Below are positions 60 to 40,992 of a stretch of DNA of 64,000 nucleotides, piece after piece. Source of the DNA: Pseudomonadota bacterium (GTDB lineage Bacteria > Campylobacterota > Campylobacteria > Campylobacterales > Sulfurimonadaceae). Below the pieces are notes generated by a model. It was given only the letters and a program-made list of their open reading frames with translations, did no database searches and was not told where the DNA came from. The stretch covers positions 128,001 through 192,000 of the forward strand of contig JAZDQA010000008.1 in the NCBI GenBank assembly GCA_043797085.1. Reading direction: 5' to 3'. The position numbers and the translations under genes were made by a program. Numbering within the stretch: position 1 is the first letter of the stretch; every line of letters starts with the position of its first letter.

Positions 60-76
60 ATACAATTATTGTTCTA
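60..76 (-). promoter_or_regulatory. Candidate nif-type -24/-12-like promoter (TAGAACAATAATTGTAT, 1 mismatch)
   Basis: Matches GAAC-N5-TTG(C)AT motif found before nifH/nifB/nifS; about 30 nt upstream of ATG at 28. Confidence 0.45.
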
Positions 77-81
77 GCTTT

Positions 82-98
82 TCGTATGATAATTGCAT
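82..98 (+). promoter_or_regulatory. Candidate nif-type -24/-12-like promoter (TCGTATGATAATTGCAT, weak)
   Basis: G and TTGCAT at motif spacing; upstream of AAA/VWA operon; back-to-back with 60-76. Confidence 0.35.
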
Positions 99-109
99 TC
101 CTTTGATTG

Positions 110-186
110 TGAACGCCATCGGAATACATCCCGATTGGCTACGCTTGCCGCTATGGCACTGAAGCTTGCCTCATTCGAGGCAGAAT
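110..186. repeat. 77-nt composite GTAG-REP-like repeat, copy A
   Basis: Minus strand GTAG followed by palindrome ccaatcgg-gatgtatt-ccgatgg; scaffold shared with 38943-39019 and palindrome shared with 4636-4670. Confidence 0.8.
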
Positions 187-208
187 ATTTTCTGTATGAA
201 GGAATAGA

Positions 209-1204
209 ATGAACCCTCAAAGTGCCAAACGATCCCTTGCTCATCTATGTGAACGTAAAGTTCCCGTCTTTTTATGGGGACCTCCGGGAATCGGTAAATC
301 CTCTATTGTCGCTCAGATTGCACGTGAAGCGGGGATCGGCTTTATTGATTTGCGTCTCTCACTCCTCGATCCGACTGATTTACGCGGTATCCCTTTTTTT
401 AACGCCAAAAACGACACAGCGATTTGGGCACCTCCCGCATTTTTACCGGATGGTCGTGAGGAAAAAGGGATATTGTTTCTCGATGAGCTCAACACTGCCG
501 CACCGATGGTTCAAGCCTCTGCATATCAGTTAATATTAGACCGTAAAATCGGTGAATACAGACTTCCTGATGGATGGGCGATTATCGCTGCAGGGAATCG
601 TGAGAGCGATCGAGGGGTGGTATTTCGCATGGCGGCACCGCTAGCAAACCGTTTTGTTCATTTGGAGATGGAGGCAAATGTGGCGGATTGGCGAAAATGG
701 GCGATAGGTGCAGGGATAGAGCCTTCGATTATTGCGTATATCTCCCACCGTCCGGATGCACTGTTCGTCTTTAACTCAGAGAGCCGATCGTTTGCAACTC
801 CTCGAACGTGGGCGTATGTACATGATATCATGGCTTCCAATCCTGAGGAAGATTTGGTGATGCCGATGGTTTCGGGGGCGATTGGGGAAGAGCTTGCCGC
901 CTCGTATCTTGGATTTCGTCTCGTTGCCTCACAGTTACCTGATTTGGATGCGATACTGGAAGGGACATGCAGTGATGTTCCCACTGACCCCTCGGCATTG
1001 CACATTCTCTCTACGGCACTTACTATGCGGGTTAATGATTACACGGGGAATAAGAAGCTCAACAACCTTATCACCTATACGTTGAAACTTCCCGGTGAGT
1101 TTGCTGTAATGATTATCCAAGACCTCAGAGCACGTAAAATCGAACTCGACCATGTTGAGAGCTGGCCGTTGTGGATGCGCCAGTTTAATACACTGCTACG
1201 ATAA
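209..1204 (+). CDS. MoxR-like AAA+ ATPase
   Basis: Walker A GPPGIGKS, Walker B LFLDE, AAGNR, LANRF, ATPRTW; adjacent VWA gene. Confidence 0.85.
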   Translation: MNPQSAKRSLAHLCERKVPVFLWGPPGIGKSSIVAQIAREAGIGFIDLRLSLLDPTDLRGIPFFNAKNDTAIWAPPAFLPDGREEKGILFLDELNTAAPMVQASAYQLILDRKIGEYRLPDGWAIIAAGNRESDRGVVFRMAAPLANRFVHLEMEANVADWRKWAIGAGIEPSIIAYISHRPDALFVFNSESRSFATPRTWAYVHDIMASNPEEDLVMPMVSGAIGEELAASYLGFRLVASQLPDLDAILEGTCSDVPTDPSALHILSTALTMRVNDYTGNKKLNNLITYTLKLPGEFAVMIIQDLRARKIELDHVESWPLWMRQFNTLLR

Positions 1205-2352
1205 TGTCGCACGAAGAACTTCTTTTACGGGCAAAAAGCCTTTTGAATGTGAAATATCCCTATTTCGGGATGCTGGCTTCACGGTTGCAACATGAACCAA
1301 GCGACACCGTATCAGGATATGCGAGTAATGGAAAACGGTTTATCTACAATGTCCAATTTTTGGAGCGTAGAAACGTCGAGGATGTGATGTTTATCCTCAC
1401 GAATGCCGTGATGCACCATGTCCTCTCCCATCAGCAGAGAAAACTCAATCGCAAAGGTAAGTTATGGCAGTTAGCGACCGACTACGCCATCAACAATCTC
1501 CTTTCCAAAAGCGGTCTGCATATCCCTATTGGGGCAAATTACAACAAAGAATACGAAGGTATGTACGCCGAAGAGATTTACGATGCACTTAAAAATGATG
1601 TAAATATTGGCGAGGGTGATGCCTTCGGTGAAAGTGGTGACAGTGCCCCCGAAGCTTCCACGATGGAGCAAGAGGATGATGACTCGTCAGGTTTTGCCAA
1701 TATTGACGGTATCGCGGATGAGCTTGACACCCAAGATGAATTGCAATGGCAATACGCCGCCTCGATCGCTCAGGAAGTAGCACAGCGTAAGGGATCTATG
1801 CCGTTGGGATTGGAGCGATTGGGGAAAAAGGTGAAGCCCAGCGATGTTGATTGGCGATTTGAACTTTATAATGCCGTCAACCGCCACATGCGCAACAACT
1901 ACGCCTTTATGCCTCCGAACAAAAAACATATCCATCGCGGAATAGCACTTCCATCCCTCACCAGTGATACTCTCAGTCTTTGTGTAGCCGTTGATACTTC
2001 CGGATCAATCGACGATCAGCTTTTGGGGGCATTTATGGAGGAGTTTAAAACCATCATGCAAAACTTTCCTTCCGTCAAAATCGAACTCATCATCGCCGAT
2101 GCCAAGGTGCATGCTCATCATACCTTCCAAGGGGGAGAACGGATGGATTTCGCGCTCAAAGGAGGAGGCGGAACCGATTATCGCCCGACGTTTGATTATG
2201 TCGAAGCGAATTTGCCGATGACGACAATGTTGTTGTATTTCACCGACGGGGAAGGGTCGTTTCCGCGTATTCCTCCAAATTATGAAGTGCTGTGGGCACT
2301 CTCACGAAAAGCAAAAGTTCCATTTGGACGGGGGATGGTAATTTTTAGTTAA
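1204..2352 (+). CDS. DUF2201-type metallopeptidase-like N-domain + VWA domain protein
   Basis: MIDAS DTSGS, GGGTDY, FTDG; acidic linker; N-domain has NAVMHH where HExxH is expected; translationally coupled to AAA gene. Confidence 0.8.
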   Translation: MSHEELLLRAKSLLNVKYPYFGMLASRLQHEPSDTVSGYASNGKRFIYNVQFLERRNVEDVMFILTNAVMHHVLSHQQRKLNRKGKLWQLATDYAINNLLSKSGLHIPIGANYNKEYEGMYAEEIYDALKNDVNIGEGDAFGESGDSAPEASTMEQEDDDSSGFANIDGIADELDTQDELQWQYAASIAQEVAQRKGSMPLGLERLGKKVKPSDVDWRFELYNAVNRHMRNNYAFMPPNKKHIHRGIALPSLTSDTLSLCVAVDTSGSIDDQLLGAFMEEFKTIMQNFPSVKIELIIADAKVHAHHTFQGGERMDFALKGGGGTDYRPTFDYVEANLPMTTMLLYFTDGEGSFPRIPPNYEVLWALSRKAKVPFGRGMVIFS

Positions 2353-2576
2353 AGATGATCGCTGTAATCGCAAGACCCATCGATCTCATGCATCTCTTTT
2401 ACTGATTTTTTCAAATCTGCTGCATATTGGGCCAAGAGCATGGCATCAACTTCACAATCCGCTGCGATAGCTATGATTTCGCTACTAGTGATGTCAGGGG
2501 AGCGTAGGCGTGCGAACTGATCGGCTGTGATGTTGATGTGAAATATTTTGTCGATGGAGTGAAGGGTGAGAATCAT
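2349..2576 (-). CDS. Hypothetical protein (75 aa)
   Basis: ATGA overlap with upstream ORF, GGAGGG RBS. Confidence 0.6.
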   Translation of the reverse strand: MILTLHSIDKIFHINITADQFARLRSPDITSSEIIAIAADCEVDAMLLAQYAADLKKSVKEMHEIDGSCDYSDHL

Positions 2577-3058
2577 CCCTCCATGCTCCGTAATGCGGTG
2601 TTAATCTGCTCTAATGCCAGAGACTTGGCATTTTCTACCTCTTTGTTATCCCACCAGTATTCGATGATAGCGTGTTCAATCTGTTCGATTTGCTCCATAC
2701 GTAAGTTGACAAAAACTTCATTCGTGTTGATTTCATCGGGGCTGAGTCCTTTGGAAGCGGCAATTTTATTCAGCGTTTCGACGATGCTTTTTTCGAGCGG
2801 TTTTGGGGTGCTTTCTTCACGGGCGTGATCGATCCATGCGCGAATTTCGTCCTCTAGGTAATCATGTCCCCACACCTGATAACACAAAATACGATTTGGC
2901 GTATAGATGATAGTGTGATCTTCACTCAATACGTCAGAGGATTTGACATTTCCGTCGTAGATATAGACTTCCAGACGTTCATTGTCGCGCAGGGTGCAGG
3001 CTTGTTCAAAAGCCGCTCGGGCGTGTTTTAGCACTTCGCTTTTTAGATTTTCATTCAT
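2573..3058 (-). CDS. Hypothetical protein (161 aa)
   Basis: AAGGAG RBS, operon-like spacing. Confidence 0.7.
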   Translation of the reverse strand: MNENLKSEVLKHARAAFEQACTLRDNERLEVYIYDGNVKSSDVLSEDHTIIYTPNRILCYQVWGHDYLEDEIRAWIDHAREESTPKPLEKSIVETLNKIAASKGLSPDEINTNEVFVNLRMEQIEQIEHAIIEYWWDNKEVENAKSLALEQINTALRSMEG

Positions 3059-3067
3059 AGTGACTCC

Positions 3068-3289
3068 TTAAGATACTTTTGCATTATGATAGTCCCATAG
3101 CCGTTTGTAATGGCTGTCGAGCTCAGATAGGGTTGAATCGACGGTGATGAGTTCATTGGTACGATCAAATCGTTTATTGTTGGTCTCATACCAGTTTTCC
3201 ATCTCTATTTTGAGAACATTGCGCTTCGCAGCAGTTTGGGCGATGAGTTGACGTATCTCTTCCATCTCTGAGGTGATGATATATTCCAT
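3068..3289 (-). CDS. Small coiled-coil hypothetical protein (73 aa)
   Basis: First gene after motif at 3324-3340; helical charged sequence. Confidence 0.65.
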   Translation of the reverse strand: MEYIITSEMEEIRQLIAQTAAKRNVLKIEMENWYETNNKRFDRTNELITVDSTLSELDSHYKRLWDYHNAKVS

Positions 3290-3323
3290 GTTGGACTCTT
3301 CGTGTATGTAATTAACAGCACTT

Positions 3324-3340
3324 ATGCATTTTTTATTCTT
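3324..3340 (-). promoter_or_regulatory. Candidate nif-type -24/-12-like promoter (AAGAATAAAAAATGCAT)
   Basis: 16/17 identical to 35384-35400; about 35 nt upstream of ATG 3289. Confidence 0.6.
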
Positions 3341-3345
3341 TAGGT

Positions 3346-3362
3346 GTGAACAACAATTGCAA
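3346..3362 (+). promoter_or_regulatory. Candidate nif-type -24/-12-like promoter (GTGAACAACAATTGCAA)
   Basis: GAAC-N5-TTGCA about 36 nt upstream of ATG 3399; heads Sel1-Nfu/TOBE/fdx/nifX operon. Confidence 0.65.
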
Positions 3363-3398
3363 TGGTTCTCTTAATAAGAGTAAAAATAGGGAGTGACC

Positions 3399-4127
3399 AT
3401 GGAAGAAGAGACATTGATGCAACAAGCGATTAAAGCCTACGATGCGAAAGATTTTATGAGTGCAAAAGCGATTTGGGAATCTCTTGGTGACTCTAACACG
3501 AATGCCATGGTCAATCTGGGAACAATGTATGTCAAAGGATTCGGGATGCCTAAAAACATCCATAAGGCATACGAGCTGTTTGAACGTGCGGCATCCTTGG
3601 GACATGAAACGGCTGCATTTTATCTGGGCGGCATGTATGAAAACGGCATCGGTGTCACTGCAAATTTGGAAGAATCGATTCGTCATTATACGGTAGCGGC
3701 AGAGGCCAATATGGCAACGGCACAGCTGAAACTTGGAATTTTACTCCGTAATGATGATGTTTTGAACTCGATGAAATGGATGATTAAAGCGGCACATGCA
3801 GGAGAAGCGCAAGCCCATTCACTGTTGACCTACGTGAGCAACCAAAATGAAGATAACGACATAAATGTCACATTTCGGATGATGGATCTCTCCTCTCAGC
3901 GTGCCAAAGTTGAAACCGTTATTAGTGAAAATCTCGGACCCATCCTTGCAAGCGACGGCGGCGGAGTCGAGTTGGTCAACTACGTAAGCGGTGATACTCC
4001 TGAAATATGGCTCCGATATTTGGGTGCATGTTCAGGATGTCATTTGGGACCAACCTCGACAGCGGGGATGATACTTGAGCAGTTTGAAAACGTTATCGAT
4101 AAAAGAATTGTTATTTATCTTTGGTAA
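3399..4127 (+). CDS. Sel1-repeat protein fused to C-terminal NifU/Nfu domain
   Basis: Sel1 repeats (AMVNLGTMYVKGFG, AAFYLGGMYENGIG); Nfu motif PILASDGGGVELV...YLGACSGC. Confidence 0.8.
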   Translation: MEEETLMQQAIKAYDAKDFMSAKAIWESLGDSNTNAMVNLGTMYVKGFGMPKNIHKAYELFERAASLGHETAAFYLGGMYENGIGVTANLEESIRHYTVAAEANMATAQLKLGILLRNDDVLNSMKWMIKAAHAGEAQAHSLLTYVSNQNEDNDINVTFRMMDLSSQRAKVETVISENLGPILASDGGGVELVNYVSGDTPEIWLRYLGACSGCHLGPTSTAGMILEQFENVIDKRIVIYLW

Positions 4128-4139
4128 TAGGAGTCTATT

Positions 4140-4592
4140 ATGAACTCATTTCCGGCATACGTGGAAGAGATAAAAAGTGATCAATTTTTTAGCTGCATCA
4201 CCGTTCGCACAAAAGAGACGGTCTTAAAACTTCTCAAAACCGAAGTACCTAAATGGCTAAAAATCGGTGATGAGGTGGAATGCCGTATCCAAGAAGCAGC
4301 GATTTCACTGTGTACGGGAGCCAAAGAGGGAAGTGTTTCGATTGAAAATCATCTCTCAGGTGAATTGCAACATTTTCGTAAGGGTTTGGTTTTGAGTGAA
4401 GTGAGCGTGGAAACACCTTGCGGGATTATGAATTCGCTTATTACCACGGATGCGTTTGATCGGATGGAGTTATGCGAGGGGTGCAGTGTAACATTGTTGC
4501 TTAAAGCGGTGGATATAAAACTTCTTCCCGTATTGGACTCCACCTCGTATGAAAATTGCAAAGACAAATTATATCAATTGAAAAATAGATAA
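4140..4592 (+). CDS. Tandem TOBE/Mop molybdate-binding protein (ModG-like)
   Basis: SIENHLSG...SLITTDAFDRMEL...LLLKAVDI Mop pattern; nif context. Confidence 0.7.
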   Translation: MNSFPAYVEEIKSDQFFSCITVRTKETVLKLLKTEVPKWLKIGDEVECRIQEAAISLCTGAKEGSVSIENHLSGELQHFRKGLVLSEVSVETPCGIMNSLITTDAFDRMELCEGCSVTLLLKAVDIKLLPVLDSTSYENCKDKLYQLKNR

Positions 4593-4593
4593 A

Positions 4594-4670
4594 GCACTTA
4601 AGTGCGCGGGCTCTCTGCCGAAGAGAACTTAGCGTTAGCGTAGCCAATCGGGACGTGTTCCGATGGCGTT
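4594..4670. repeat. GTAG-REP-like repeat, copy B (inverted relative to copy A)
   Basis: AGCGTAG-ccaatcgggacgtgttccgatgg-CGTT equals reverse complement of 112-145 with 2 loop changes; additional hairpins gcacttaagtgc and ctct..agag. Confidence 0.8.
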
Positions 4671-4697
4671 TTATAAAAATATACCAAGGAGTCTATT

Positions 4698-5072
4698 ATG
4701 GCTGTAATGATTACTGATTTATGTATTAACTGTGACGCGTGTATCGACGAGTGTCCCGTAGCGGCAATCGCAAGTGAGGGTGATTCACCGCGTGATGATT
4801 GGGAATATACCTACGTCAAACCGGAAAAATGTATCGAGTGTGTCGGTCATGCTGAAGTTCCTGCGTGTGCAGCCGCCTGTCCTACGGAAGAGTGTATCGT
4901 GTGGGATATGCCGTATACGGCTGAGTTTAATGATTATTATGTGAACAGTTCGGATTATGCGATTGGTTCGAGCAAAAAACGAGGATTGCTTTCTCCGGAA
5001 GTCTCTCCTCAAACGTTCCGTGATGATATTTCGATTGAAATGCGTCAAGCACGTGAAGCGGTAGCCGTCTAA
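4698..5072 (+). CDS. 2[4Fe-4S] ferredoxin (FdxN-like) with C-terminal extension
   Basis: CINCDACIDECP and CIEC-x8-CAAACP. Confidence 0.85.
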   Translation: MAVMITDLCINCDACIDECPVAAIASEGDSPRDDWEYTYVKPEKCIECVGHAEVPACAAACPTEECIVWDMPYTAEFNDYYVNSSDYAIGSSKKRGLLSPEVSPQTFRDDISIEMRQAREAVAV

Positions 5073-5453
5073 ATGTTAATCGCGTTCGCTTCATCGGATG
5101 GAATCTCTGTCAATCAACATTTTGGATGGTCGAAGAGTTTTGAGCTGTATCGTGTCACGCAAGAGACAGCCGAGTTTATCAAAACACTCGACAGCTCCCA
5201 AGACGCGATCGAAGACGAACACGAAAAGCTGGCGTACAAAATCGGGACGGTAAAAGAAGCAGATATCATGTTTTGCTCCCAAATCGGTCCGACGGCGTCG
5301 AAGATGGTGTTGGCTTCCAAAATTTATCCGATGCGTTCGGCAGAAAATGAACTTATTGAGGAAGCAATCAAAAAACTTCAAGAGTTATTATTGGGCAATC
5401 CGCCGCCGTGGTTGTTGCGAATTGTACACACAACAAAAGATAAGGAGATTTAA
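5073..5453 (+). CDS. nifX: NifX, FeMo-co precursor carrier
   Basis: IAFASSDG..VNQHFG, IGPTA, PPPWL C-terminus. Confidence 0.85.
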   Translation: MLIAFASSDGISVNQHFGWSKSFELYRVTQETAEFIKTLDSSQDAIEDEHEKLAYKIGTVKEADIMFCSQIGPTASKMVLASKIYPMRSAENELIEEAIKKLQELLLGNPPPWLLRIVHTTKDKEI

Positions 5454-5455
5454 TT

Positions 5456-5851
5456 ATGTCAGTAATTATCGATGATACCTGTATCACGTGCGATGCGTGT
5501 TTACAACAATGTCCGGTCAATGCAATCTTAGATGATACCACAAGCCCGATGGGGAACAAACGTTATTACGTTGAACCGGAAAAATGTATCGAATGCGTCA
5601 GTGTGTATGATGATCCGCAATGTGCGGCGATTTGTCCGAGTATCGGATGTATTACGTGGGATATGCCTTTTACCAAAGAGTTCGATGCTCATTTTCTTAA
5701 TGAAGAGATCTATAAATTAGGGACAAAAAACGGTGTTCCAAAATCTCCCGCCTTTAGAGAGAAAAAATACCGCAAAGATATTCCTATCGAAATGCGTGGA
5801 GTAGGGCATATCGTCCAAGAAGAACCGGAAAACCTCGAAGAAGTGGGATAA
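5456..5851 (+). CDS. Second 2[4Fe-4S] ferredoxin (FdxN-like) with C-terminal extension
   Basis: CITCDACLQQCP and CIEC-x8-CAAICP. Confidence 0.85.
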   Translation: MSVIIDDTCITCDACLQQCPVNAILDDTTSPMGNKRYYVEPEKCIECVSVYDDPQCAAICPSIGCITWDMPFTKEFDAHFLNEEIYKLGTKNGVPKSPAFREKKYRKDIPIEMRGVGHIVQEEPENLEEVG

Positions 5852-6192
5852 TGAACCCCATCAACAAAGTTGCCGCCAGACTCGACACTTTTGGCAGAGA
5901 TTGTGCGGTGACGGTCGCTTTGAAAATCAGCGATGATTCATGCAAGATGGATGAGGAACAGCGCTCTGTCTTTATGGCTCTTTACGATGCGCTTGAATCT
6001 TTTGAAAGTGAACTTTTTGATGAGAGTGTCAACACGCTAATTCATTCCGCCCGAACTGCTCCCTCCGCAACTCTTTATGCTCAGATCAAAAAAGAGCGTG
6101 AAATGGCAATGGCAATCATCACCCAAGAGAAGATGAAAGCGTTTAAAGCATCGGTTCGAGCCGCATTGCTGATCGCACAGTTAAATCAATAA
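5851..6192 (+). CDS. Hypothetical protein (113 aa), last gene of nifX operon
   Basis: TAATG coupling to ferredoxin gene. Confidence 0.7.
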   Translation: MNPINKVAARLDTFGRDCAVTVALKISDDSCKMDEEQRSVFMALYDALESFESELFDESVNTLIHSARTAPSATLYAQIKKEREMAMAIITQEKMKAFKASVRAALLIAQLNQ

Positions 6193-6368: not shown

Positions 6369-6439
6369 GATGGGATTTTAGCATAGGATTAAGGGTAAAA
6401 GAGTATTATAAGACAATAAAAAACATCAAAGGGGTGCAC

Positions 6440-6838
6440 ATGGGTGAGGGATTGGTACGATGCCGACAACGGATGGTCAACTACACCAAATCACTTGCTC
6501 ATCTACGTACTACAGTCGAAAAAGAGAGCCTCAACGAGATCGAAAAAGCGGGGTTGATTCAGTTTTTCGAGGTGGCATTTGAACTTTCGTGGAAAGTGAT
6601 GAAAGATTATCTCATCACTGAGGGTTATGATGTCAAAAGCCCACGTGAAGCGATCAAAACGGCGTTTGATTACGGACTGATAACAGATGGAGCCAAATGG
6701 CTCGAAGCTCTCGAAAAACGAAACCTCGCCGCCCACACCTATGATGAATCGATCCTCGATGAACTCGAAGAGTTGATAACTCACACCTATTATCCGATGA
6801 TGGAAGCTCTCAGAATCTCTCTCGAAGAGCGGCTATGA
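6440..6838 (+). CDS. HEPN toxin (HI0074-family nucleotidyltransferase substrate-binding protein)
   Basis: GLIQFFEVAFELSWK, SPREAIK, RX4HXY motif RNLAAHTY. Confidence 0.85.
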   Translation: MGEGLVRCRQRMVNYTKSLAHLRTTVEKESLNEIEKAGLIQFFEVAFELSWKVMKDYLITEGYDVKSPREAIKTAFDYGLITDGAKWLEALEKRNLAAHTYDESILDELEELITHTYYPMMEALRISLEERL

Positions 6839-7128
6839 TCGGACTCTCACATTCGGAACTCCAAACACTCCGCGACGTTTTTTCCCGCTTTAGCGATATT
6901 TCCGAAGTGATCCTTTTCGGCTCCCGCGCACGAGGAACACACCGACCATCCTCCGATGTTGATCTCGCTCTCAAGGGGGGAAATCTCAGTATCGACACTC
7001 TCTCTAAACTCCGATATATCCTCGAAGAGGAGACCAATCTCCCTTATTTTTTTGATATTGTTGTTTATGATCGGGTGGAGAATGAGGCGTTGAAGAGGGA
7101 GATTGATGAGGATGGGGAAATAATATGA
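6835..7128 (+). CDS. Minimal nucleotidyltransferase (MNT) antitoxin
   Basis: GSX10DXD motif FGSRARGTHRPSSDVD; ATGA overlap with HEPN. Confidence 0.85.
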   Translation: MIGLSHSELQTLRDVFSRFSDISEVILFGSRARGTHRPSSDVDLALKGGNLSIDTLSKLRYILEEETNLPYFFDIVVYDRVENEALKREIDEDGEII

Positions 7129-13037: not shown

Positions 13038-13114
<77 letters not shown>

Positions 13115-24880: not shown

Positions 24881-26074
<1,194 letters not shown>

Positions 26075-26099: not shown

Positions 26100-26116
26100 A
26101 TGCAAGATTTGTTCGA
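26100..26116 (-). promoter_or_regulatory. Candidate nif-type -24/-12-like promoter of nifS (TCGAACAAATCTTGCAT)
   Basis: GAAC-N5-TTGCAT about 35 nt upstream of ATG. Confidence 0.7.
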
Positions 26117-31658: not shown

Positions 31659-32873
31659 TTACGCCTGTACGCTCTCTTCTTTATAAACATAGATAGGTTC
31701 GTTACTCGAATCTTCGATCACCGCTTCGGTGATGGTGAGGCTTTGTAGATTCTTTTTTGACGGACAGCTAAATTGCAACGGCAACATTGCTTCTTCGATA
31801 ATACTGCGTAATCCGCGTGCTCCGACACCACGATCGATTGCTTTTTGGGCAACGGCATCGAGGGCTTTGGCTTCAAAGTTCAGCTCGATACCGTCCATAT
31901 CAAACAGCGCTTGAAACTGTTTGATGAGGGCATTATCCGGTTCTTGGAGAATCTGAACCATTTGCTCTTTGGTTAGCTCGGTTAGCTGTGCAACGACGGG
32001 AATACGTCCGATAAACTCAGGGATGATTCCATAGTGAACGAGCGCTTTGGCATCAATCTTTTTAGGTTTAACGACGGTTTCGGCAGTGCTTTTGCTAAAT
32101 CCGACTTTATTCGATTTTTTAGTATGGGTATCGGGTACAAGTCCTACGAACGCACCTCCACAGACGAAGAGGACGTGGGTGGTGTTAAACAATACCGTTT
32201 CAGTGGTGGAATTTTTACGGCTCCCTTTGACGGGGACGTAGACTTCTGCCCCTTCTAGGATTTTGAGTAAGCCTTGTTGTACACCTTCACCTGAAACATC
32301 ACGTCCCATGGTAGAAGATTCCGATTTACGGGCGATTTTATCAATCTCGTCGATGTAGATGATCCCGCGCTGAGCCAATTCGATGTCATAGTTTGCTGCC
32401 GCAAGCAAACGAGAGAGGATACTCTCAACGTCTTCTCCTACGTAGCCAGCTTCGGTGAGTGCGGTCGCATCGGCAACGGCAAACGGAACTTGCATGATTT
32501 TCGAGAGCGATTTGGCGAGCAATGTTTTACCGCTACCCGTTGGACCTACGAGCATAATGTTGGATTTTTCGAGTTCTACGTTGTTGTAGATCGGGTTTTC
32601 AATCCGTTTGTAATGGTTGTAGAGAGCAACGGCAAGGACTTTTTTCGCATCGACTTGACCGATGATGTATTTGTCCAAAAACTCAACGATTTTTTCAGGA
32701 GTAGGGAGCTGTTGCTGCATAGCAGAGCGTTGCTCGTACCGTACCTCTTTTTGCAAAATTGCAGAACAGGTGGTGATACACTCATTACAAATATGGGTTG
32801 TCTCCGAGGAGAACATTTTTTTTACTTCGCTCTGTTTACGACCACAAAATGAGCAGGTTTTTTCAGTATTCAT
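31659..32873 (-). CDS. clpX: ClpX ATPase (nif-associated copy)
   Basis: CSFC..CNEC zinc finger, [29 protein letters not shown] loop. Confidence 0.92.
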
Positions 32874-32876
32874 CAC

Positions 32877-33470
32877 TCAATCCTTCGCACTGAATTTAGT
32901 CAAAATTGTATCCGCTAATCCAAACTCGATCGCTTCATGGGCTTCCATGTAGTTGTCACGGTCGGACTCTTTTTCGATGATTTTGGCACTTTTACCGGTT
33001 GCCTCGGCTAAGATGGCATACAAACGACGTTTGAGATTGAGGATATGTTTCGTATGAATCTCGATGTCGCTCGCCTGACCCGAATACCCGCCCAGTGGTT
33101 GATGAATCATCACTTCGGCATTAGGGAGCATATAACGATGCCCTTTTTCCCCGCAGGTAAACAGTACCGCCGCCATTGATGCAACCATTCCCATGGCGTA
33201 GGTATGCACGGGGGCATTGATTAAGTTCATAGTATCTAATATGGCTAATCCGCTCATCACTGAACCACCCGGTGAACTGATGTAAACATGAATCGGCTCT
33301 TCGGAATCCATAGCTTCCAAATAAAGCAGTTGAGAGACGACAATCCCCATCATGTGATCATCAATCGCTTCAGTGATAACGATGACACGATCGCCTAAAA
33401 GTTTGGAAAACAAATCGAAATATCGCTCTCCGCGAGGCGAAACATCTTTAACAGTTGGTAAATATGGCAT
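32877..33470 (-). CDS. clpP: ClpP peptidase (nif-associated copy)
   Basis: SPGGSV, ASMAA (Ser), IHQP (His), DRDNY (Asp). Confidence 0.92.
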   Translation of the reverse strand: MPYLPTVKDVSPRGERYFDLFSKLLGDRVIVITEAIDDHMMGIVVSQLLYLEAMDSEEPIHVYISSPGGSVMSGLAILDTMNLINAPVHTYAMGMVASMAAVLFTCGEKGHRYMLPNAEVMIHQPLGGYSGQASDIEIHTKHILNLKRRLYAILAEATGKSAKIIEKESDRDNYMEAHEAIEFGLADTILTKFSAKD

Positions 33471-33482
33471 CTTAAGCTCCTT

Positions 33483-34313
33483 TTATACAAATGCTTGAAT
33501 AAATTCTTGAAGTGACATAGGGATCACTTCAATATTGTGTTTCTCGATAAACTTTTTCTCTTTTTTCCCCAGCTCTTGATCGGTGATGACGTATCCCCCC
33601 TCCAAATCAAAGCTAAGCTCATTGGCAACCATCCGATCGGTATCGTGACCGAAGGATGTCCCTAAAAAGAGATATTTTTTCGCTTTACGGTAGGTTTTGA
33701 GTACCTTCGGCACGGCAAATCCACCCATCGCTTCGGTAAGCCAATCGACGTAATCGGCATCGGAGATGACAAAGGTCGGATTAGGAAGCGGTGATCCCAT
33801 CGGTTTAAAGAGGATTTTTTCGGCATTATCCAGTACCTCGTCATCTACGAGAAAATACTTTTGATTTTCAACATCGTACTCATACGTTTCATAGCGATTT
33901 AGATCACCCATGATACGTGATTTTCCGATGATGAGACAGTGCGGTGTAAATGCGAGAAGCTCTTGAAGCTTCGTGTCGCGGTTGGTATCAACGATGTAGC
34001 GAGGAAGCATATCGACTATCGCTTTGTGCAACGGTGTCGGGTCAAACGGCTTGGTATAAATATGATTGATAAGCTGTGTCATATACTCCACACCGCGACG
34101 CTGTTCCAAATGCATCGCCGCACGTGAGTACTCAAACATGAGGCGTGGTGCCATAGCCCGCCCGCCATTCATCGCCAAAATCAGCGAATCACTGTCATGA
34201 GGAACCGCTTCACCCTCTTTGGTCATGATTCCCTCAAATACACCTAATCCGAAGTAGGGAATGGTGGTCTGATTGCGTAACTCTTTTTTGATTGTTTCGA
34301 TTTGTGTATCCAT
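33483..34313 (-). CDS. SIR2-like (SIR2_2) domain protein
   Basis: PYFGLG, DTNRD, KPMGS, SDADY, YLFLG pattern; family known near nif genes. Confidence 0.7.
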   Translation of the reverse strand: MDTQIETIKKELRNQTTIPYFGLGVFEGIMTKEGEAVPHDSDSLILAMNGGRAMAPRLMFEYSRAAMHLEQRRGVEYMTQLINHIYTKPFDPTPLHKAIVDMLPRYIVDTNRDTKLQELLAFTPHCLIIGKSRIMGDLNRYETYEYDVENQKYFLVDDEVLDNAEKILFKPMGSPLPNPTFVISDADYVDWLTEAMGGFAVPKVLKTYRKAKKYLFLGTSFGHDTDRMVANELSFDLEGGYVITDQELGKKEKKFIEKHNIEVIPMSLQEFIQAFV

Positions 34314-34344: not shown

Positions 34345-34361
34345 TTGCATTTTGCGTTCTT
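34345..34361 (-). promoter_or_regulatory. Candidate nif-type -24/-12-like promoter (AAGAACGCAAAATGCAA)
   Basis: About 32 nt upstream of ATG 34313. Confidence 0.65.
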
Positions 34362-34443: not shown

Positions 34444-34950
34444 TTACCCGTGACACCCTTTGCCTGTATAACAGCTATTGGCAGCGACGATCTTTGCAAG
34501 TGCTTTGTCAATACTAAATGGAGCGTTTAGATCACTTAGTATTTCATGGTAGAAGACTGCTCCATCTTTGGAGATAATAAATAGCGATTTGGCAAGTTCT
34601 TTGCTAGAAAGTCGAACACCGTAATAATCCCCGTATGCCTCATCATAATCATATCCGCTTAACCACTCTTGGAGTGTTGGCAATTCATGTTGGTCATTTG
34701 CGACGATGAGCGCTTTGGTAATTCCTCCCAGTGCATTGAGCGAGAGAAGCGTATCCACCTCAGTTAACTGAGAAATGAGTGCTTCATCGATAAATGCTGT
34801 ACTAATAAGGAGTTGTGTAAATCCGTTTTGCCCTCCGATGGTAAATGTCTCATCCTTGTGATTTTTAAGGCTCACTTTTTCAGAGGCATAACCGACATCG
34901 AGAGGCATATCTTCAAGATACAGCGTGGATGTGTTGTAATTTATCTGCAA
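34444..34950 (-). CDS. Thiol-peroxidase (Tpx)-like protein lacking the peroxidatic Cys
   Basis: LDVG.., YGDYYGV..LAKSLFIISKDG.V.YHEI pattern; TTG start with AGGAG. Confidence 0.6.
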   Translation of the reverse strand: MQINYNTSTLYLEDMPLDVGYASEKVSLKNHKDETFTIGGQNGFTQLLISTAFIDEALISQLTEVDTLLSLNALGGITKALIVANDQHELPTLQEWLSGYDYDEAYGDYYGVRLSSKELAKSLFIISKDGAVFYHEILSDLNAPFSIDKALAKIVAANSCYTGKGCHG

Positions 34951-35356
34951 TTTCGACTCCTATAATAAAATGGTTCATTGCTTCGTGTATCGTTTTCATA
35001 AAGGGAGGAATCTTATGAATTTTTATCCCGACGTTGCGCATCGCATAAAAGGTATTGAGACAATATTGACCTGTGATGAGATAGTCGCATTTGCCGATGA
35101 CTTCCAAAAGTGCGTAATGCTCACTGATGTGGTGAGGATCGAGGCTCTTATCTGTGTCGCAGCTGCTTTCTTTCATCTTTGGATCACACACCATCTCCCC
35201 ATCGCATTTCTTCCAAGGGTTAAGTTTGGACCCAATATGCCGATAGCGAATGTCGTTACGTTCTCCGGTAAGCTCATACAGTGCGAACATTATTGCGCTA
35301 CACGGATTGTAGTGGTAGACACGCTTGAATGCATCTATCGGTATAGCAACGATCAT
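34913..35356 (-). CDS. NifB/NifX-family (dinitrogenase FeMo-co-binding-like) protein
   Basis: MIVAIP start after AAGGAG; ..IGKCDYLI..C..AMRNVGIKI pattern; Cys/His-rich. Confidence 0.5.
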   Translation of the reverse strand: MIVAIPIDAFKRVYHYNPCSAIMFALYELTGERNDIRYRHIGSKLNPWKKCDGEMVCDPKMKESSCDTDKSLDPHHISEHYALLEVIGKCDYLITGQYCLNTFYAMRNVGIKIHKIPPFMKTIHEAMNHFIIGVEIADKLQHIHAVS

Positions 35357-35383
35357 TGTCAGCTCCTTATATTGACTAGATTT

Positions 35384-35400
35384 ATGCAATTTTTATTCTT
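35384..35400 (-). promoter_or_regulatory. Candidate nif-type -24/-12-like promoter (AAGAATAAAAATTGCAT)
   Basis: About 28 nt upstream of corrected start 35356. Confidence 0.65.
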
Positions 35401-35496: not shown

Positions 35497-35513
35497 AAGA
35501 ACGCTATTTGCAT
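35497..35513 (+). promoter_or_regulatory. Candidate nif-type -24/-12-like promoter of nifB (AAGAACGCTATTTGCAT)
   Basis: GAAC-N5-TTGCAT upstream of nifB. Confidence 0.7.
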
Positions 35514-35586
35514 AACTGGATTTCAGATAATGATTGGCACCGGATGAGGCAAGATCATTGAAAAATGATAATAACAAGGAGATACT

Positions 35587-37002
35587 ATGAGCTGTTCATC
35601 AACTGGAACTGAAGCTTTTATGCCCGATGATATTAAGGAAAAGATCCACAATCATCCATGCTATTCTGAGGGTGCCCACCACCACTATGCCCGTATTCAC
35701 GTAGCGGTTGCCCCTGCGTGCAATATCCAATGCAATTATTGTAACCGTAAATACGACTGTTCGAACGAGTCACGTCCGGGTGTAACCTCTGAGCGCCTCT
35801 CGCCTGTGGAAGCCGCGAAGAAAGTCATGTTCGTCGGCGGAGAAGTACAACGTATGAGCGTACTTGGGATTGCAGGTCCCGGCGATGCGTTGGCGAATCC
35901 TAAAAAGACGTTTGAGACGTTTGGAATGGTGCGTGAGTTTGCTCCGGATCTTAAACTGTGTCTCTCTACAAACGGATTGGAATTGCCTAATTTTATCGAT
36001 GAAATGGTCGAATACAATATCGATCATATCACCGTCACCATTAACAGCGTTGATGAGACGGGAGAGATCGGAAGTTTGATTTATCCGTGGATTTTCCATA
36101 ATAACAAGCGTATTTATGGAAAAGAAGCCGCACAAATCCTCCTTGAAAATCAGCTTGAGGGGATGCGTAAATGTGTCGAAAAAGGGATTTTGATCAAAGC
36201 CAATTCCGTTTTGATCCCAGGTATTAACGATCAGCATCTACCGGAAGTATCCCGCAAACTCAAAGAGATCGGCGTGTTTTTGCACAACATTATGCCTATT
36301 CTTTCCGAGCCTGAGTTCGGAACCAAATTTGCCCTCGATGGCGTTCCTAGTGCGACCGATCAAGAGCAAATGGCAGCTCAAGAAGCATGCGGTCATGATA
36401 TGAAACTCATGCAGCACTGCCGTCAGTGCCGTGCGGATGCCGTAGGGCTTATCGGTGAAGACCGTGGCGGAGAGTTTACGAAAGATACGTTTGCAGGGCT
36501 TAGTTTCGATGAGCTACAAATCAAATACGATCTCGAAGCGCGTCAAGAAGCACAAGCGAAGATCGAAGAATTCCGATTCTTCCTTGATCGTGCAAATGAC
36601 CGTGTTCGAAAAGAAAAAGAAGAACTCAGCTCCAACGGTGTGACAATCCTCGTTGCGGTTACGACTGCGGGCGAGGGGATGATTAACATGCACTTCGGAA
36701 GCGTTAAAGAGTTCTTGATTTACGAAGCAGGGGACAAAGGTATACGATTTATCCATCATCGTAAAGTCGATGCAGAATATTGTGCAGGTCCAGACGGTAC
36801 TAATCCGCTCGCTCCGATTTTAGAGAAACTCAAAGACGTACAGATGGTTCTGACTGCAAAAATCGGCGGATGCCCGCAAGATGATCTAAAAGCAGCCGGA
36901 ATTGTGGCAGATCAAAGCTATGCGTATGAGCCGATTGAGATTTCGGTACTGAAAGCATCACGCAAATATTTCGGTGTGGATGAAAACGCGGAAGTGAATT
37001 AA
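35587..37002 (+). CDS. nifB: NifB radical SAM with C-terminal NifX-like domain
   Basis: HPC, CNIQCNYC, ESRPG, AGPGD, TVTIN, CRQCRADA, HFG. Confidence 0.97.
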   Translation: MSCSSTGTEAFMPDDIKEKIHNHPCYSEGAHHHYARIHVAVAPACNIQCNYCNRKYDCSNESRPGVTSERLSPVEAAKKVMFVGGEVQRMSVLGIAGPGDALANPKKTFETFGMVREFAPDLKLCLSTNGLELPNFIDEMVEYNIDHITVTINSVDETGEIGSLIYPWIFHNNKRIYGKEAAQILLENQLEGMRKCVEKGILIKANSVLIPGINDQHLPEVSRKLKEIGVFLHNIMPILSEPEFGTKFALDGVPSATDQEQMAAQEACGHDMKLMQHCRQCRADAVGLIGEDRGGEFTKDTFAGLSFDELQIKYDLEARQEAQAKIEEFRFFLDRANDRVRKEKEELSSNGVTILVAVTTAGEGMINMHFGSVKEFLIYEAGDKGIRFIHHRKVDAEYCAGPDGTNPLAPILEKLKDVQMVLTAKIGGCPQDDLKAAGIVADQSYAYEPIEISVLKASRKYFGVDENAEVN

Positions 37003-37006
37003 TACC

Positions 37007-38122
37007 ATGGCACTCATAAATGACACTACTTTGCGCGACGGAGAGCAAGCTGCTTACGTCGCATTCAATACCGAGGAAAAAATCCGCATCGCAACATTGC
37101 TGGATGCATGCGGAGCGGATGAACTCGAAATTGGTATTGCGGCAATGGGTGTCAAAGAACGCGAGGATATAAAAACGCTTCTTTCTCTGGGTTTGAGAGC
37201 GCGAATGATGACGTGGAATCGGATGAAGATGGAGGATCTTGATGCATCGCTTTCTTGCGGTGTGCAAGCGGTTGATTTATCGATTCCCATTTCGGATCTT
37301 TTGATCGATGTCAAATTCGGCGGAAGTAAAATAAAAGTATTGCACGAACTCGAACGTGTCGTTACGGCTGCCACTCGCGAAGGACTGTTTGTCTGTATTG
37401 GCGGCGAAGACAGTTCACGGGGCAGTTTTGAATTTATCAAAGATGTGATGGAACTTTCCCGTGAATGCGGAGCACAGCGTTTCCGCTATTGCGATACGAT
37501 CGGTATTATGACACCTACACAAACGTATAAAGCGGTCAAGTCACTGACGGATTTAAATCTCCTCCCGATAGAAATGCACACGCACAACGATTTTGGACTC
37601 GCCAACGCCAATGCCCTCAGCGGCATCGACGCAGGGGCAATCAGTATGAACACGACGGTCATGGGTTTAGGCGAGAGGGCGGGTAATGCTTCATTTGAAC
37701 AGATTCTCATGGCATTGAAACATCTTTACGGCGAGGCACGCCCCATTGACCCTCTCTTGATACGAAATCTGGTTGGAACGGTAGCAAGTGCCGCTAACAT
37801 GACACTTGCACCCAATGCCCCTATCGTGGGAGAACATATCTTCGCCCACGAGAGTGGCATTCATGCAAGCGGTATGATGAAAGACTCCCATGCGTATGAA
37901 CCGTATTCAGCATGTGAAGTAGGATTGGAAAGTTCGTATCCTATCGGTAAACACTCTGGAAGTGCAACGATCCGCTACCATCTCAAACGGATGGGAATCA
38001 GTGCGGATAACAGCATCTTAAGTGATCTTCTCCCAAAAATCCGAGAGATCGTTACTTCACGTAAGCGGGTATTGGATGTATTCGAACTTAAATCTCTCTA
38101 TCAGGATGCAGCATGTATATAG
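37007..38122 (+). CDS. nifV: Homocitrate synthase
   Basis: DTTLRDGEQ, HTHNDFG, GERAGNA, FAHESGIH, GKHSG; follows nifB. Confidence 0.93.
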   Translation: MALINDTTLRDGEQAAYVAFNTEEKIRIATLLDACGADELEIGIAAMGVKEREDIKTLLSLGLRARMMTWNRMKMEDLDASLSCGVQAVDLSIPISDLLIDVKFGGSKIKVLHELERVVTAATREGLFVCIGGEDSSRGSFEFIKDVMELSRECGAQRFRYCDTIGIMTPTQTYKAVKSLTDLNLLPIEMHTHNDFGLANANALSGIDAGAISMNTTVMGLGERAGNASFEQILMALKHLYGEARPIDPLLIRNLVGTVASAANMTLAPNAPIVGEHIFAHESGIHASGMMKDSHAYEPYSACEVGLESSYPIGKHSGSATIRYHLKRMGISADNSILSDLLPKIREIVTSRKRVLDVFELKSLYQDAACI

Positions 38123-38940: not shown

Positions 38941-38942
38941 TT

Positions 38943-39019
38943 TGAACGAGGCAGGAGTAAAACCCCTGCCTCTACGCTTGCCGCTATGGCACTAAAGCTT
39001 GCCCCTTTGGGGGCAGAAT
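38943..39019. repeat. 77-nt composite GTAG-REP-like repeat, copy C
   Basis: Same scaffold and length as 110-186 but palindrome aggcagg-agtaaaacc-cctgcct. Confidence 0.8.
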
Positions 39020-39037
39020 TTTTGAAAGGATTATTCC

Positions 39038-39262
39038 ATGAACCTGCTTGAAAGCTGTGTGAATGAAAAATGCAAAGTCCTTTCTATAGATTTGAGTGAT
39101 GATCTAAAGCGACATCTTTGTGATATGGGACTGTGTGCGAATGCTACCGTGTGCGTTAAACGGTATGGTTTGTTCAAAAGCAGTGTCCAAGTCCAAATTG
39201 GTCAGAGATTGATTGCACTGGGAAAAAATCAAGCCCGAAACATTGAGATACGTGTAGCCTAA
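39038..39262 (+). CDS. feoA: FeoA-family protein
   Basis: RHLCDMGL...IALGKNQARNIEI. Confidence 0.75.
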   Translation: MNLLESCVNEKCKVLSIDLSDDLKRHLCDMGLCANATVCVKRYGLFKSSVQVQIGQRLIALGKNQARNIEIRVA

Positions 39263-39299
39263 CTTTAGGCGTATAAAATTAAATAAAAAGGGAACGATT

Positions 39300-39497
39300 A
39301 TGTCTGAAATGACCGAAGTAGAACACAAAAAAGAGTTGGCAAAGCTCAAACGTTTGGCGATTGAAGTTGCCTCTGAAATTCACGATATTGTTGAAGACAC
39401 GGTTTGGAGTAATCACGTGAAAATGCCTGAACTGGCTGAAAAACTCTACATTGCCGTCGAAAAAGCAAATGCGTATAAAGCAGAGCACTCTCTGTAA
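39300..39497 (+). CDS. CCE_0567/DUF683 (Rop-like) nif-associated metalloprotein
   Basis: LAKLKRLA..ASEIHDIVED..W. Confidence 0.7.
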   Translation: MSEMTEVEHKKELAKLKRLAIEVASEIHDIVEDTVWSNHVKMPELAEKLYIAVEKANAYKAEHSL

Positions 39498-39508
39498 AGG
39501 AGGCTCGT

Positions 39509-39787
39509 ATGCCTACCAAAGAAGAAATCTTAGCCCACGAAATCTGTGAATGCGGCGGCAAGAGTGTTGCCGATGCTATCAAAATATTTCAAGATACCTC
39601 CCTTCCTTATAAAAAAGCCAAAAAACTCGTTACCGAGTGTGACAAGAGCTGCTGCCGTGCTGCACTTCTACGAATATTTGATATGGCGTATACGGGTAAA
39701 TTTGATTACGATGAGATCGATCGACTCATTCAATTACGCAACGATAAACTGGGCGAAATACTCGAGAGGATGAAAAGTGGGCGCTGA
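39509..39787 (+). CDS. Small Cys-rich BFD-like putative [2Fe-2S] protein
   Basis: ICEC...CDKSCC spacing. Confidence 0.5.
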   Translation: MPTKEEILAHEICECGGKSVADAIKIFQDTSLPYKKAKKLVTECDKSCCRAALLRIFDMAYTGKFDYDEIDRLIQLRNDKLGEILERMKSGR

Positions 39788-40238
39788 AATAACCATTCGA
39801 GACGCTCATTATGATGATGTTGGCGTAATGGCTGCTTTGTTGGTAGAGTTGTTTCTTATAGAAGACGATTTTAGCATTGACATTGAGAAACAAATACAGG
39901 GGTTAGAACTCTTACTCGAAACCCAAAACTGCCTTGTTTTGGTTGCTGAAATTTCCGGACAAGTGATAGGAATGATTTCCATGCAAGGTCTTGTTTCTAC
40001 TGCGATGGGTGAACGTGTAGGTTTAATCGAAGACATGATCGTATCGCATGAGTTTCGCGGTATCGGAGTTGGTCGATTACTTCTTGGTTCTATGCTTGAA
40101 CATGCAAATAGTCTTGGGTATGGACGTATTGCATTGGGAGCGGATAGACGAAATGAACGAGCTATTAATTTTTATTCTAAGTTTGGATTTGAGACGAGCA
40201 ATATGGGGTTGATGTATTATCTACCCCGTGCTCCATAA
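39777..40238 (+). CDS. GNAT acetyltransferase
   Basis: FRGIGVGRLLL, NERAINFYSKFGF. Confidence 0.85.
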   Translation: MGAEITIRDAHYDDVGVMAALLVELFLIEDDFSIDIEKQIQGLELLLETQNCLVLVAEISGQVIGMISMQGLVSTAMGERVGLIEDMIVSHEFRGIGVGRLLLGSMLEHANSLGYGRIALGADRRNERAINFYSKFGFETSNMGLMYYLPRAP

Positions 40239-40774
40239 TGATAAGCGCCTTTATCTTCGAAAACCTCTTTGATTTCTAATACAACAGGTGTTGATTTCTC
40301 TTGCTGGGTAAAATGGCTTAATTCGTCAAATTTCTCATCCGATAAACTCATCAGCTGTGCTTCAAAAATACGGAGTTTTTGTTTTAGTTTATCTGAGAGC
40401 TGGACAATCTCTTCATAATAGCGTTGAGAGAATTCGATTTCATGGGAACTTGCACGCGTTTTCCCCCCTAAAAATTCACTCAGAAGATTACGTTTTCTAT
40501 TTCCATAATAGATAGGATAAATTTTCGTGTATTTATCATGTAACTCCATTAAGAGAGTTTCAATATCTTCGAGTGCTAATTGACTTGTTCCTAAGCTAAA
40601 AAGCATTGCTTCATTGTAATACCATACTCCAAATTGTGAATGGGTTGCATCCAGCGTGATTTGTTTCTCATCGACATCAATACCGGAAACCAGCAGTTTG
40701 ATTGCGTTGACCCAGCGTATATGTGCGGTTCTGGCTTGATGCATGTTATGGATAAATTTTTCTTTATTGGTCAT
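40217..40774 (-). CDS. CZB-like domain protein
   Basis: AHIRWV, SQFGVWY, ELHDKY. Confidence 0.6.
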   Translation of the reverse strand: MTNKEKFIHNMHQARTAHIRWVNAIKLLVSGIDVDEKQITLDATHSQFGVWYYNEAMLFSLGTSQLALEDIETLLMELHDKYTKIYPIYYGNRKRNLLSEFLGGKTRASSHEIEFSQRYYEEIVQLSDKLKQKLRIFEAQLMSLSDEKFDELSHFTQQEKSTPVVLEIKEVFEDKGAYHYGARGR

Positions 40775-40975
40775 AGCAGCCCCTTTTTTACGGAAGTTTA
40801 ACCATTTAGGATGATTTATTCGCAGATAGACAGTTTAATTTTTAATCAGTTGATAAATATTGGGTGAGAAATGTCGTAATTTTAACGAAGCTGACCCCTG
40901 CAACTCATATTCCTACAATTTTGTTTCATTGTCGTAACTTTGTAACGGTTGTTTTGCTAAATGTCCAAAAAACCG

Positions 40976-40992
40976 TAGAACACCCTTTGCAT
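40976..40992 (+). promoter_or_regulatory. Candidate nif-type -24/-12-like promoter of nifH (TAGAACACCCTTTGCAT)
   Basis: GAAC-N5-TTGCAT 34 nt upstream of ATG. Confidence 0.7.

Follow-up and report, generated by a model that had tools for sequence, protein, structure and literature searches.

Sigma-54 promoters are conventionally recognized by their GG doublet, on which the matrices used for promoter prediction depend. In Rhodobacter (Cereibacter) sphaeroides, two sigma-54 factors work side by side, RpoN1 with NifA on nif genes and RpoN2 with FleQ on flagellar genes, and the two systems are separated partly by the base at -11 (PMC11999139; also PMC12316311). Sigma-54 has also been rewired by engineering: R456H, R456Y and R456L variants changed recognition of the -24 element from GG to GA, GC or GT and drove a nif cluster, and the discussion of that work regards R456 with TGGCA as the settled mode of recognition among natural sigma-54 factors (PMC12096077). 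Here we describe a nif regulon of a Sulfurimonadaceae bacterium (Campylobacterota; GenBank assembly GCA_043797085.1, hereafter G000) whose putative sigma-54 promoters lack the first G of the doublet. The analysis concerns a stretch of 64,000 nucleotides of contig C8 (G000:C8:128001-192000), referred to as the window, in which a first-pass annotation had noticed nine intergenic 17-mers of sigma-54-like layout, each oriented toward a gene. We consider it probable that these 17-mers are the core promoters of the nif regulon, read by RNA polymerase carrying a dedicated second sigma-54 factor, RpoN2, and switched on by a NifA-like activator.

The 14 contigs of the genome total 2.40 Mb at about 41% G+C, and a simple codon-usage script called 2287 genes (92.7% coding). 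Direct look-up confirmed the seven strong 17-mers in both position and strand. Within the window, GAAY-N6-TGCA occurs 13 times, compared with 6.45 ± 2.50 in shuffled sequence, and 13 was reached in one of 100 shuffles. Genome-wide there are 133 copies of H-GAAY-N6-TGCA, where H is any base but G. Nineteen of them lie in sense orientation within 100 nt before the 2285 predicted starts and seven in antisense, and the sense expectation is 5.13 ± 2.24 with a maximum of 13 (200 mononucleotide shuffles). Most of the sense matches are 25–44 nt from the start (15/19) and fall within C8:87-170 kb (13/19). The motif is real, and its occurrence is well above chance.

A weight matrix trained on 14 sites and cut at 18.5 returned 14 matches in the genome, 12 of them training sites. 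One new match, AGAACACCATTTGCA, lies 36 nt (measured from the core motif) before nifU and had been masked by a spurious small open reading frame (ORF) call; the other is inside a gene on contig C4 and is probably a chance match. Variants with GCAC score lower and precede nifE (AGCAC-N6-TGCA, at 30 nt) and nifN (CGCAC-N6-TGCA, at about 26 nt from the true start). The motif is also found before the ammonium transporter gene (amt), a ferredoxin gene on contig C11 and the gene of a double-TOBE protein on contig C6. Altogether 19 promoters were accepted genome-wide, 16 of them in the nif island, and beyond the window the regulon includes nifE, nifN, nifU, nifQ, PII, rpoN2, amt and others. At -25, these 19 promoters carry A in 12 cases, C in four, T in three and G in none, so the hallmark GG doublet is absent. 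All 19 have G at -24, and TGC stands at the exact spacing in 18, the exception being the site at window position 60 on the minus strand, which has TGT. The second hallmark doublet also varies elsewhere, as TGT replaces TGC at -14 to -12 upstream of nifH at two loci of relatives (L211 in G322 and L217 in G075).

The nif promoters form one of two sigma-54-like classes in this genome. A pattern blind to the bases at -25 and -11 (.G.A.......TGC.) identified 122 intergenic sites within 250 nt of a start. All seven genes of flagellar Pfam families among them (fliD, flgH, a rod protein, fliW, a flgG/F-like gene, a flagellin-N protein and pseB) combine GG with T at -11, whereas a base other than G at -25 together with A at -11 marks nifH, nifB, nifS, nifU, nifQ, rpoN2, PII, amt, ferredoxin and other genes. 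The first-pass annotation had supposed that nif transcription is kept separate from a flagellar sigma-54 regulon, and the flagellar genes indeed show their own consensus, GGAAY-N4-TTTTGCT(T), that is, GGAAY-N6-TTGCT, with the classes differing at -11 as well as at -25. The 14 flagellar-class sites are invariant at both positions (G at -25 and T at -11 in 14/14), while the 14 nif-class sites have A (9), C (3) or T (2) and never G at -25, and A at -11 throughout. Common to both are G at -24, A at -22, C or T at -21 and TGC at -14 to -12, along with A at -23 (14/14 flagellar, 12/14 nif); the T-run before TGC is weaker in the nif class. Sense GG...TGCT sites before starts number 13 against 1.00 expected, and the mixed forms stay at background, with two GG...TGCA sites against 1.22 and four H...TGCT sites against 4.37.

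A second rpoN with a changed RpoN box had been predicted from the motif, and it was found in the nif island behind the motif itself. Two genes of the genome exceed the cut-off of the NCBIfam rpoN family model. The housekeeping gene rpoN1 (C8:33.3-34.5 kb) follows an ABC-ATPase gene and encodes the RpoN box MVRRTIAKYR. The island gene rpoN2 (C8:87625-88890) follows a 2Fe-2S ferredoxin gene and encodes MVRRLIAKYR; its product scores 317.9 bits against TIGR02395 (cut-off 277.35) and contains the Pfam domains Sigma54_AID, Sigma54_CBD and Sigma54_DBD. The rpoN2 promoter, AGAACAAAATATGCA, lies 38 nt before the gene and has the nif-class motif. The consensus RpoN box is ARRTVAKYR. RpoN2 retains both arginines and KYR, and its threonine is replaced by leucine.

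The box residues are numbered R455, R456 and T457 (E. coli) after PMC12096077 and PMC2715252. According to the latter, D439, T457 and N471 of Klebsiella sigma-54 are able to hydrogen-bond with the -24 sequence, as judged from an Aquifex structure, a residue-to-base assignment made in a single sentence there; the same paper gives 0% activity and 2% DNA binding for a 457/458 double mutant (PMC2715252). Among the non-RpoN2-type proteins listed, position 457 is T in 43 of 45 (30/32 rows of the tree set and 13 further RpoN1 proteins), and the two exceptions, G287 and G169a, have S and both belong to the nif-associated clade described below. All RpoN2-type proteins listed outside Sulfuricurvum and G029 have S. 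The 16 RpoN2 proteins of Sulfuricurvum and G029 have V (14) or L (2, G000 and one other). By hand alignment of the C-terminal tails, the position matching N471 appears to be S in RpoN1 and K in RpoN2 and the other nif-associated copies.

One genome of the same genus, G058, has two RpoN2-type genes beside RpoN1 (C7:34743-36005 and C10:31846-33105), with 91% and 74% identity to RpoN2 of G000. The RpoN box of the second gene is of the S type known from other genera, pointing either to contamination or to the transfer of a second nif island. The best 120 matches of a homologue search with RpoN2 all belonged to its own clade, and the search did not reveal the source of the paralogue.

The association of RpoN2 with nitrogen fixation extends across the family. 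In a comparison of 121 genomes, G000 included, an RpoN2-type protein (68–93% identity) is present in 47 and nifH in 48, and housekeeping RpoN1 is 40–46% identical to RpoN2. The RpoN2 type occurs in 44 of the 48 genomes with nifH versus three of the 73 without. The four remaining nifH genomes comprise two with RpoN2 fragments, one that is 74% complete, and G075, which has a different second rpoN. The motif precedes nifH in all 29 usable relatives, with A (21) or G (8) at -25 and A at -11 in 29/29. Within the window's genus (13 loci) and G029 the nifH promoter reads TAGAAC or TAGAAT in 14/14, and in the other genera -25 is A in seven and G in eight. Of the 21 genomes whose nifH promoter has A at -25, 20 were found to have RpoN1, as were two of the eight with G. 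Before rpoN2 the motif is present at 26 of 29 loci, and 24 of these 26 have A at -25, including those of genus g11, whose nifH promoter has GG. BLAST comparison placed the relatives' sites before orthologues of rpoN2, PII, nifU, nifS, nifB, nifH, nifQ, nifE, nifN and nifW, as well as before orthologues of the redoxin, ferredoxin and uncharacterized genes of the window.

Genomes with a single sigma-54 factor indicate how RpoN2 may treat the first G. In three complete genomes (G010, G047 and G083) the sole rpoN is of RpoN2 type and fliF is lacking. Counting promoter-positioned NGAAY-N6-TGCA sites in the nif island, G at -25 occurs in 2/9 in G010 and 5/14 in G083, both RpoN2-only, versus 0/14 in G038 and 0/9 in G087, which have both rpoN types. 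Cells with RpoN2 only therefore appear to accept GG as well as HG promoters; for RpoN2, the first G would be dispensable rather than excluded. The altered -24 specificity that the first-pass annotation proposed is supported in this sense, as an apparently relaxed and not a switched preference.

A wider sample of 251 genomes of the phylum showed second or sole rpoN copies in two other families, 47–51% identical to RpoN2 and often located after the same ferredoxin gene. The nif-associated rpoN copies of other families occur in nifH-bearing genomes and encode the RpoN box RRTITKYR, one with S. The nifH promoters of these families are GGAAC-N6-TGCA (8/10) or GGAAC-N6-TGTA (2/10), with GG and A at -11 in 10/10. 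In a quick maximum-likelihood tree of 46 RpoN proteins, rooted at the midpoint with no outgroup, a nif-associated clade separates from a housekeeping/flagellar clade with 99% SH-aLRT support. The RpoN2 group (99%) lies inside the nif-associated clade on a long stem (0.51 changes per site). The clade with a replaced RpoN-box threonine coincides with loss of the first G; most of its genera have S at this position, the window's genus has V, and G000 and one other genome have L.

Candidate activators for both systems are encoded in the genome. The sigma-54 activator domain has two strong matches (253 and 242 bits) and nine more at 29 bits or less. The NifA-like activator (542 aa) is encoded in the nif island and has the Pfam domains GAF, Sigma54_activat, AAA_lid_14 and HTH_8 and the loop GAFTDA. 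The FlgR-like activator (384 aa) consists of a receiver and an AAA+ domain and ends right after the AAA lid, without a helix-turn-helix. In Helicobacter and Campylobacter, FlgR reportedly acts on holoenzyme from solution, and an activator of this kind should be capable of firing whichever promoter carries its sigma factor. An FlgR without a DNA-binding domain would fire any RpoN1-bound promoter along with the flagellar programme, which would give nif promoters in RpoN1-containing cells a reason to avoid both GG and T at -11.

These features suggest the following mechanism. The nif promoter keeps the sigma-54 layout, with G at -24, GAAC or GCAC, ten bases from G to GC, and TGC, and adds A at -11. 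RpoN2 would tolerate any base at -25, probably as a result of the RpoN box change (T to S, V or L) and of another contact residue. The NifA-like protein would sense nitrogen status through its GAF domain and activate the RpoN2 holoenzyme at HGAAC-N6-TGCA, and the flagellar promoters are presumably read by RpoN1 with FlgR. In cells with both factors, the G at -25 would have been lost from nif promoters; together with the -11 base, this would place nif genes beyond the reach of RpoN1 and enhancer-independent FlgR. As rpoN2 and PII belong to the regulon, feedback is expected, and it would be positive for rpoN2, which lies behind its own promoter type. We infer from sequence which sigma factor reads which class, what the residue change contributes and that the two systems are insulated.

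A bolder version of this reading, which we hold tentatively and which may well prove too strong, is that natural evolution has made the RpoN2 of the Sulfurimonadaceae an orthogonal sigma-54, giving one cell two insulated channels. The replaced threonine and the lysine at the second contact position would have freed RpoN2 from the upstream G, and in flagellated lineages selection against firing by RpoN1 and FlgR would have removed GG from the whole nif regulon.

Alternatively, RpoN2 may read the nif promoters while discrimination comes from -11 and activator pairing alone, the non-G bases at -25 being neutral drift. Every nif-type promoter has A at -11, also in the two other families whose nifH promoters are of GG type (10/10), and -11 is the known discriminator in R. 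sphaeroides; moreover, the genus g18 (G018 and G036) has retained GG before nifH despite carrying both rpoN types. At about 41% G+C, however, roughly one site in five would be expected to have G under drift alone, whereas G at -25 is found in 0/19 promoters here and in 0/23 of two other dual-rpoN genomes, versus 7/23 in two RpoN2-only genomes. We regard this explanation as unlikely. Somewhat less likely still is that either sigma-54 uses both classes, with rpoN2 a redundant or dosage copy and the class differences reflecting separate histories of the island and the flagellar genes. Such a scheme would suit the nif-associated rpoN copies of other families with GG nifH promoters, which are compatible with an island bringing its own promoters, and pairs of redundant rpoN genes have been reported from other bacteria. 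It fits poorly with the lack of enrichment of mixed promoter forms, the separation of the classes across many genera, the long stem branch (0.51) of the RpoN2 clade, and the 40–46% identity of RpoN1 and RpoN2, which differ at the residues reported to touch the -24 element. That the motif is not a sigma-54 element at all, being bound by some other regulator or belonging to a sigma-70-type promoter, is very improbable, even though the first G, usually regarded as essential, is missing. The motif aligns base for base with the flagellar sigma-54 promoters (G at -24, AA, C/T, six bases, TGC), has a fixed orientation and distance (25–44 nt to starts), and is accompanied by a dedicated rpoN and a NifA-like activator; an informal inspection by eye saw no common -10-like hexamer at a fixed distance.

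Several observations weigh against a dedicated RpoN2 channel for the nif promoters. The support is computational throughout. The class definitions are partly circular, as sites were picked through the motif, and the enrichment test is for that reason the cleaner result. Serine at position 457 also occurs where the nifH promoter has GG (G083 and G287), so residue 457 alone is not decisive. Besides genus g18, G066 is an exception, with A at -25 but RpoN1 not found in that genome, and these cases indicate that GG purging is not universal. Related genomes are not independent, and the contrast between single and dual rpoN amounts to about two lineages versus seven. Both activators have the FTDA loop, and a specificity between activator and sigma factor is therefore not evident from their sequences. 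The consensus NifA enhancer is TGT-N10-ACA. Among 17 promoter regions it occurs in one shared intergenic region, that between nifB and the gene of a 147-aa protein. Neither TGT-N10-ACA nor TGTC/GACA words are enriched before nif-class promoters, and TGT-N10-ACA is no commoner there than before flagellar promoters.

Octamers common to the upstream regions of rpoN2, PII/nifU and amt were considered as a nif enhancer and rejected, since they belong to a dispersed hairpin repeat found on nine contigs. This repeat, ATTCCCGC-N4-GCGGGAAT, has 14 exact copies and 22 with one mismatch over the nine contigs, and the reversed control has none. The repeat is embedded in a longer element (about 90 nt) that contains additional inverted repeats. 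Copies of the repeat lie just upstream of the PII/nifU and amt promoters (C8:104843-104862 and C7:16933-16952), and a weaker relative precedes rpoN2 (C8:87430-87520). In appearance it is a dispersed element of REP- or MITE-like kind.

In the window, the genes behind the promoters were identified by NCBIfam and Pfam scans. The nifHDK promoter, TAGAACACCCTTTGCAT (40976..40992, plus strand), ends 35 nt before the nifH ATG at 41027, and nifH, a 119-aa ORF, nifD and nifK extend over 41027..45436 (plus). The 119-aa ORF between nifH and nifD (42044-42403, plus) matches no Pfam or NCBIfam family. Upstream of nifH (loci L068-L097, and window 41003-41013), a GAAGT(T/A)CA block stands about 12–20 nt after TGC in most loci across genera and should be the region of the transcript start. 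Two or three TTGTC/ATGTC words about 20 nt apart are conserved upstream of nifH and not shared with the other promoters; they may be activator sites. RNA was available as assembled contigs of 22 runs, each holding at most a quarter of the sampled words, and four were compared with window 40200-42500. RNA contigs from relatives cover the nifH gene but carry no information on starts or strand. The start of one RNA-library contig falls at 41009, which is 19 nt past the C of TGC, and others cross the promoter; no inference is drawn from this.

The nifB-nifV promoter, AAGAACGCTATTTGCAT (35497..35513, plus), has orthologous sites in G083, G038 and G087; the two genes occupy 35587..38122 (plus). At 74 nt from the nifB ATG (35587), it departs from the spacing given in the first-pass annotation; the other six strong copies lie 25–38 nt from the ATG, counted from the end of TGCA. 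The nifS promoter, TCGAACAAATCTTGCAT (26100..26116, minus), lies 35 nt before the ATG at 26065, has orthologous CGAAC sites in G010 and G083, and precedes a gene of the epsilon-type NifS family (24881..26065, minus). The promoter AAGAACGCAAAATGCAA (34345..34361, minus) precedes an operon of a SIR2-like gene, clpP and clpX (31659-34313, minus). These two genes form a second clpP-clpX pair, the housekeeping clpX being on contig C11; a nif-linked clpX2 is reportedly known from Azotobacter vinelandii. The promoter GTGAACAACAATTGCAA (3346..3362, plus) precedes an operon of Sel1/NifU-like, TOBE, ferredoxin, nifX and ferredoxin genes (3399-6192, plus), orthologues of which lie behind the motif in G083 and G038. 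Divergent from it, AAGAATAAAAAATGCAT (3324..3340, minus) precedes three small genes of unknown function (2349-3289). The promoter AAGAATAAAAATTGCAT (35384..35400, minus) serves genes of 147 and 154 aa (34444-35356) that match no family and have orthologues likewise behind the motif in G010 and G087. The label 'NifX-like' given earlier to the 147-aa gene (34913-35356, minus) was not borne out, with no matching Pfam or NCBIfam family.

The two weaker copies also exist. That at 60..76 (minus), TAGAACAATAATTGTAT, has GT for GC and is a probable weak promoter 28 nt (from the weight-matrix site) before a gene of 186 aa that belongs to no known family and ends just left of the window; orthologues of this gene in G010, G083 and G038 have full AGAAY-N6-TGCA sites. 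The copy at 82..98 (plus), TCGTATGATAATTGCAT, lacks GAAC and is doubtful; it lies 107 nt (from the weight-matrix site) before an AAA+ gene, scores 11.8, within the chance range, and was excluded from the count. A site at 39060 (plus), 225 nt before a Rop-like gene, also scores in the chance range and was excluded. The claim that the first G is replaced in every copy holds for the 17-mers first noticed, but GG...TGCA sites of mixed class, with A at -11, occur nearby. One, GGAATATGAGTTGCA (40899..40913, minus), is 124 nt before a CZB-domain gene (40217-40774). The other, GGAACGCATTATGCA (C8:193635-193649, plus), is just right of the window, 26 nt before two ORFs of 75 and 70 aa, the former without a Pfam family.

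The nif island spans about 85 kb of contig C8. Left of the window it contains nifN, a nifX-like gene, DUF269, flavodoxin, nifW, nifZ and 2Fe-2S ferredoxin genes, followed further on by rpoN, PII, nifU, nifT, the NifA-like gene, a redoxin operon, a flavodiiron protein gene and nifQ. The nifE gene is off this contig, on C3. Between the nif operons, window 9493-31508 contains many GGDEF/EAL, PAS, hybrid kinase and CheB/CheR-fusion genes (c-di-GMP and sensor functions). Directly after the nifX-ferredoxin operon, an HI0074-family/MntA-like nucleotidyltransferase pair, resembling a type VII toxin-antitoxin system, occupies 6434-7128 (plus). Rfam models at gathering thresholds, applied to the window and two neighboring loci, matched a tRNA gene (13041-13114, minus) as the sole hit.

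Every computational test proposed in the first-pass annotation gave support, and the scans of the genome and of relatives revealed a regulon larger than first noticed. GG-based promoter scans would probably score the nif regulon here poorly. Our literature search, made on partial texts and with subscription journals outside its coverage, did not find a second rpoN, a nif promoter or nitrogen-fixation control described in Campylobacterota. If true, a natural sigma-54 blind to the first G and bearing a changed RpoN box would show co-evolution of sigma factor and promoter after duplication and identify residues that set the -24 readout. Synthetic biology would also gain, ready for use, a second sigma-54 channel comparable to those that mutagenesis has recently produced (PMC12096077). 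The case further gives a testable reason for having two sigma-54 factors, namely a flagellar activator without a DNA-binding domain.

Compared with canonical GG-N10-GC promoters and with the flagellar promoters of this genome, the nif promoters share the spacing, G at -24, TGC at -14 to -12 and their placement with respect to the gene, and with the flagellar class also GAAC after the G. They differ in having no G at -25 (0/19), A instead of T at -11 and a weaker T-run. The nif-associated rpoN copies of G164, G287, G300, G185, G322, G349 and G075 resemble rpoN2 in the ferredoxin-first order at several loci, the presence of nifH and A at -11, and those of the other families and of G075 fall in the same large tree clade; however, the other-family copies keep the threonine (one has S), and their nifH promoters have GG in 10/10. 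As in R. sphaeroides, a nif-dedicated and a flagellar sigma-54 would each have their own activator, and the promoter classes differ at -11, the pairing of sigma factor and class here being drawn from gene position and co-occurrence. Unlike R. sphaeroides, the system belongs to a different phylum, has lost the upstream G, has a changed RpoN box and is known from sequence; in addition, the nif-associated rpoN copies sampled, which come from five families of the order, cluster together and away from the flagellar copies (quick tree, no outgroup). With the engineered R456 variants, it shares a changed RpoN box paired with a changed -24 element in a separate channel. In those variants the second G is altered, whereas here both arginines are kept, the adjacent threonine is replaced and the first G is free.

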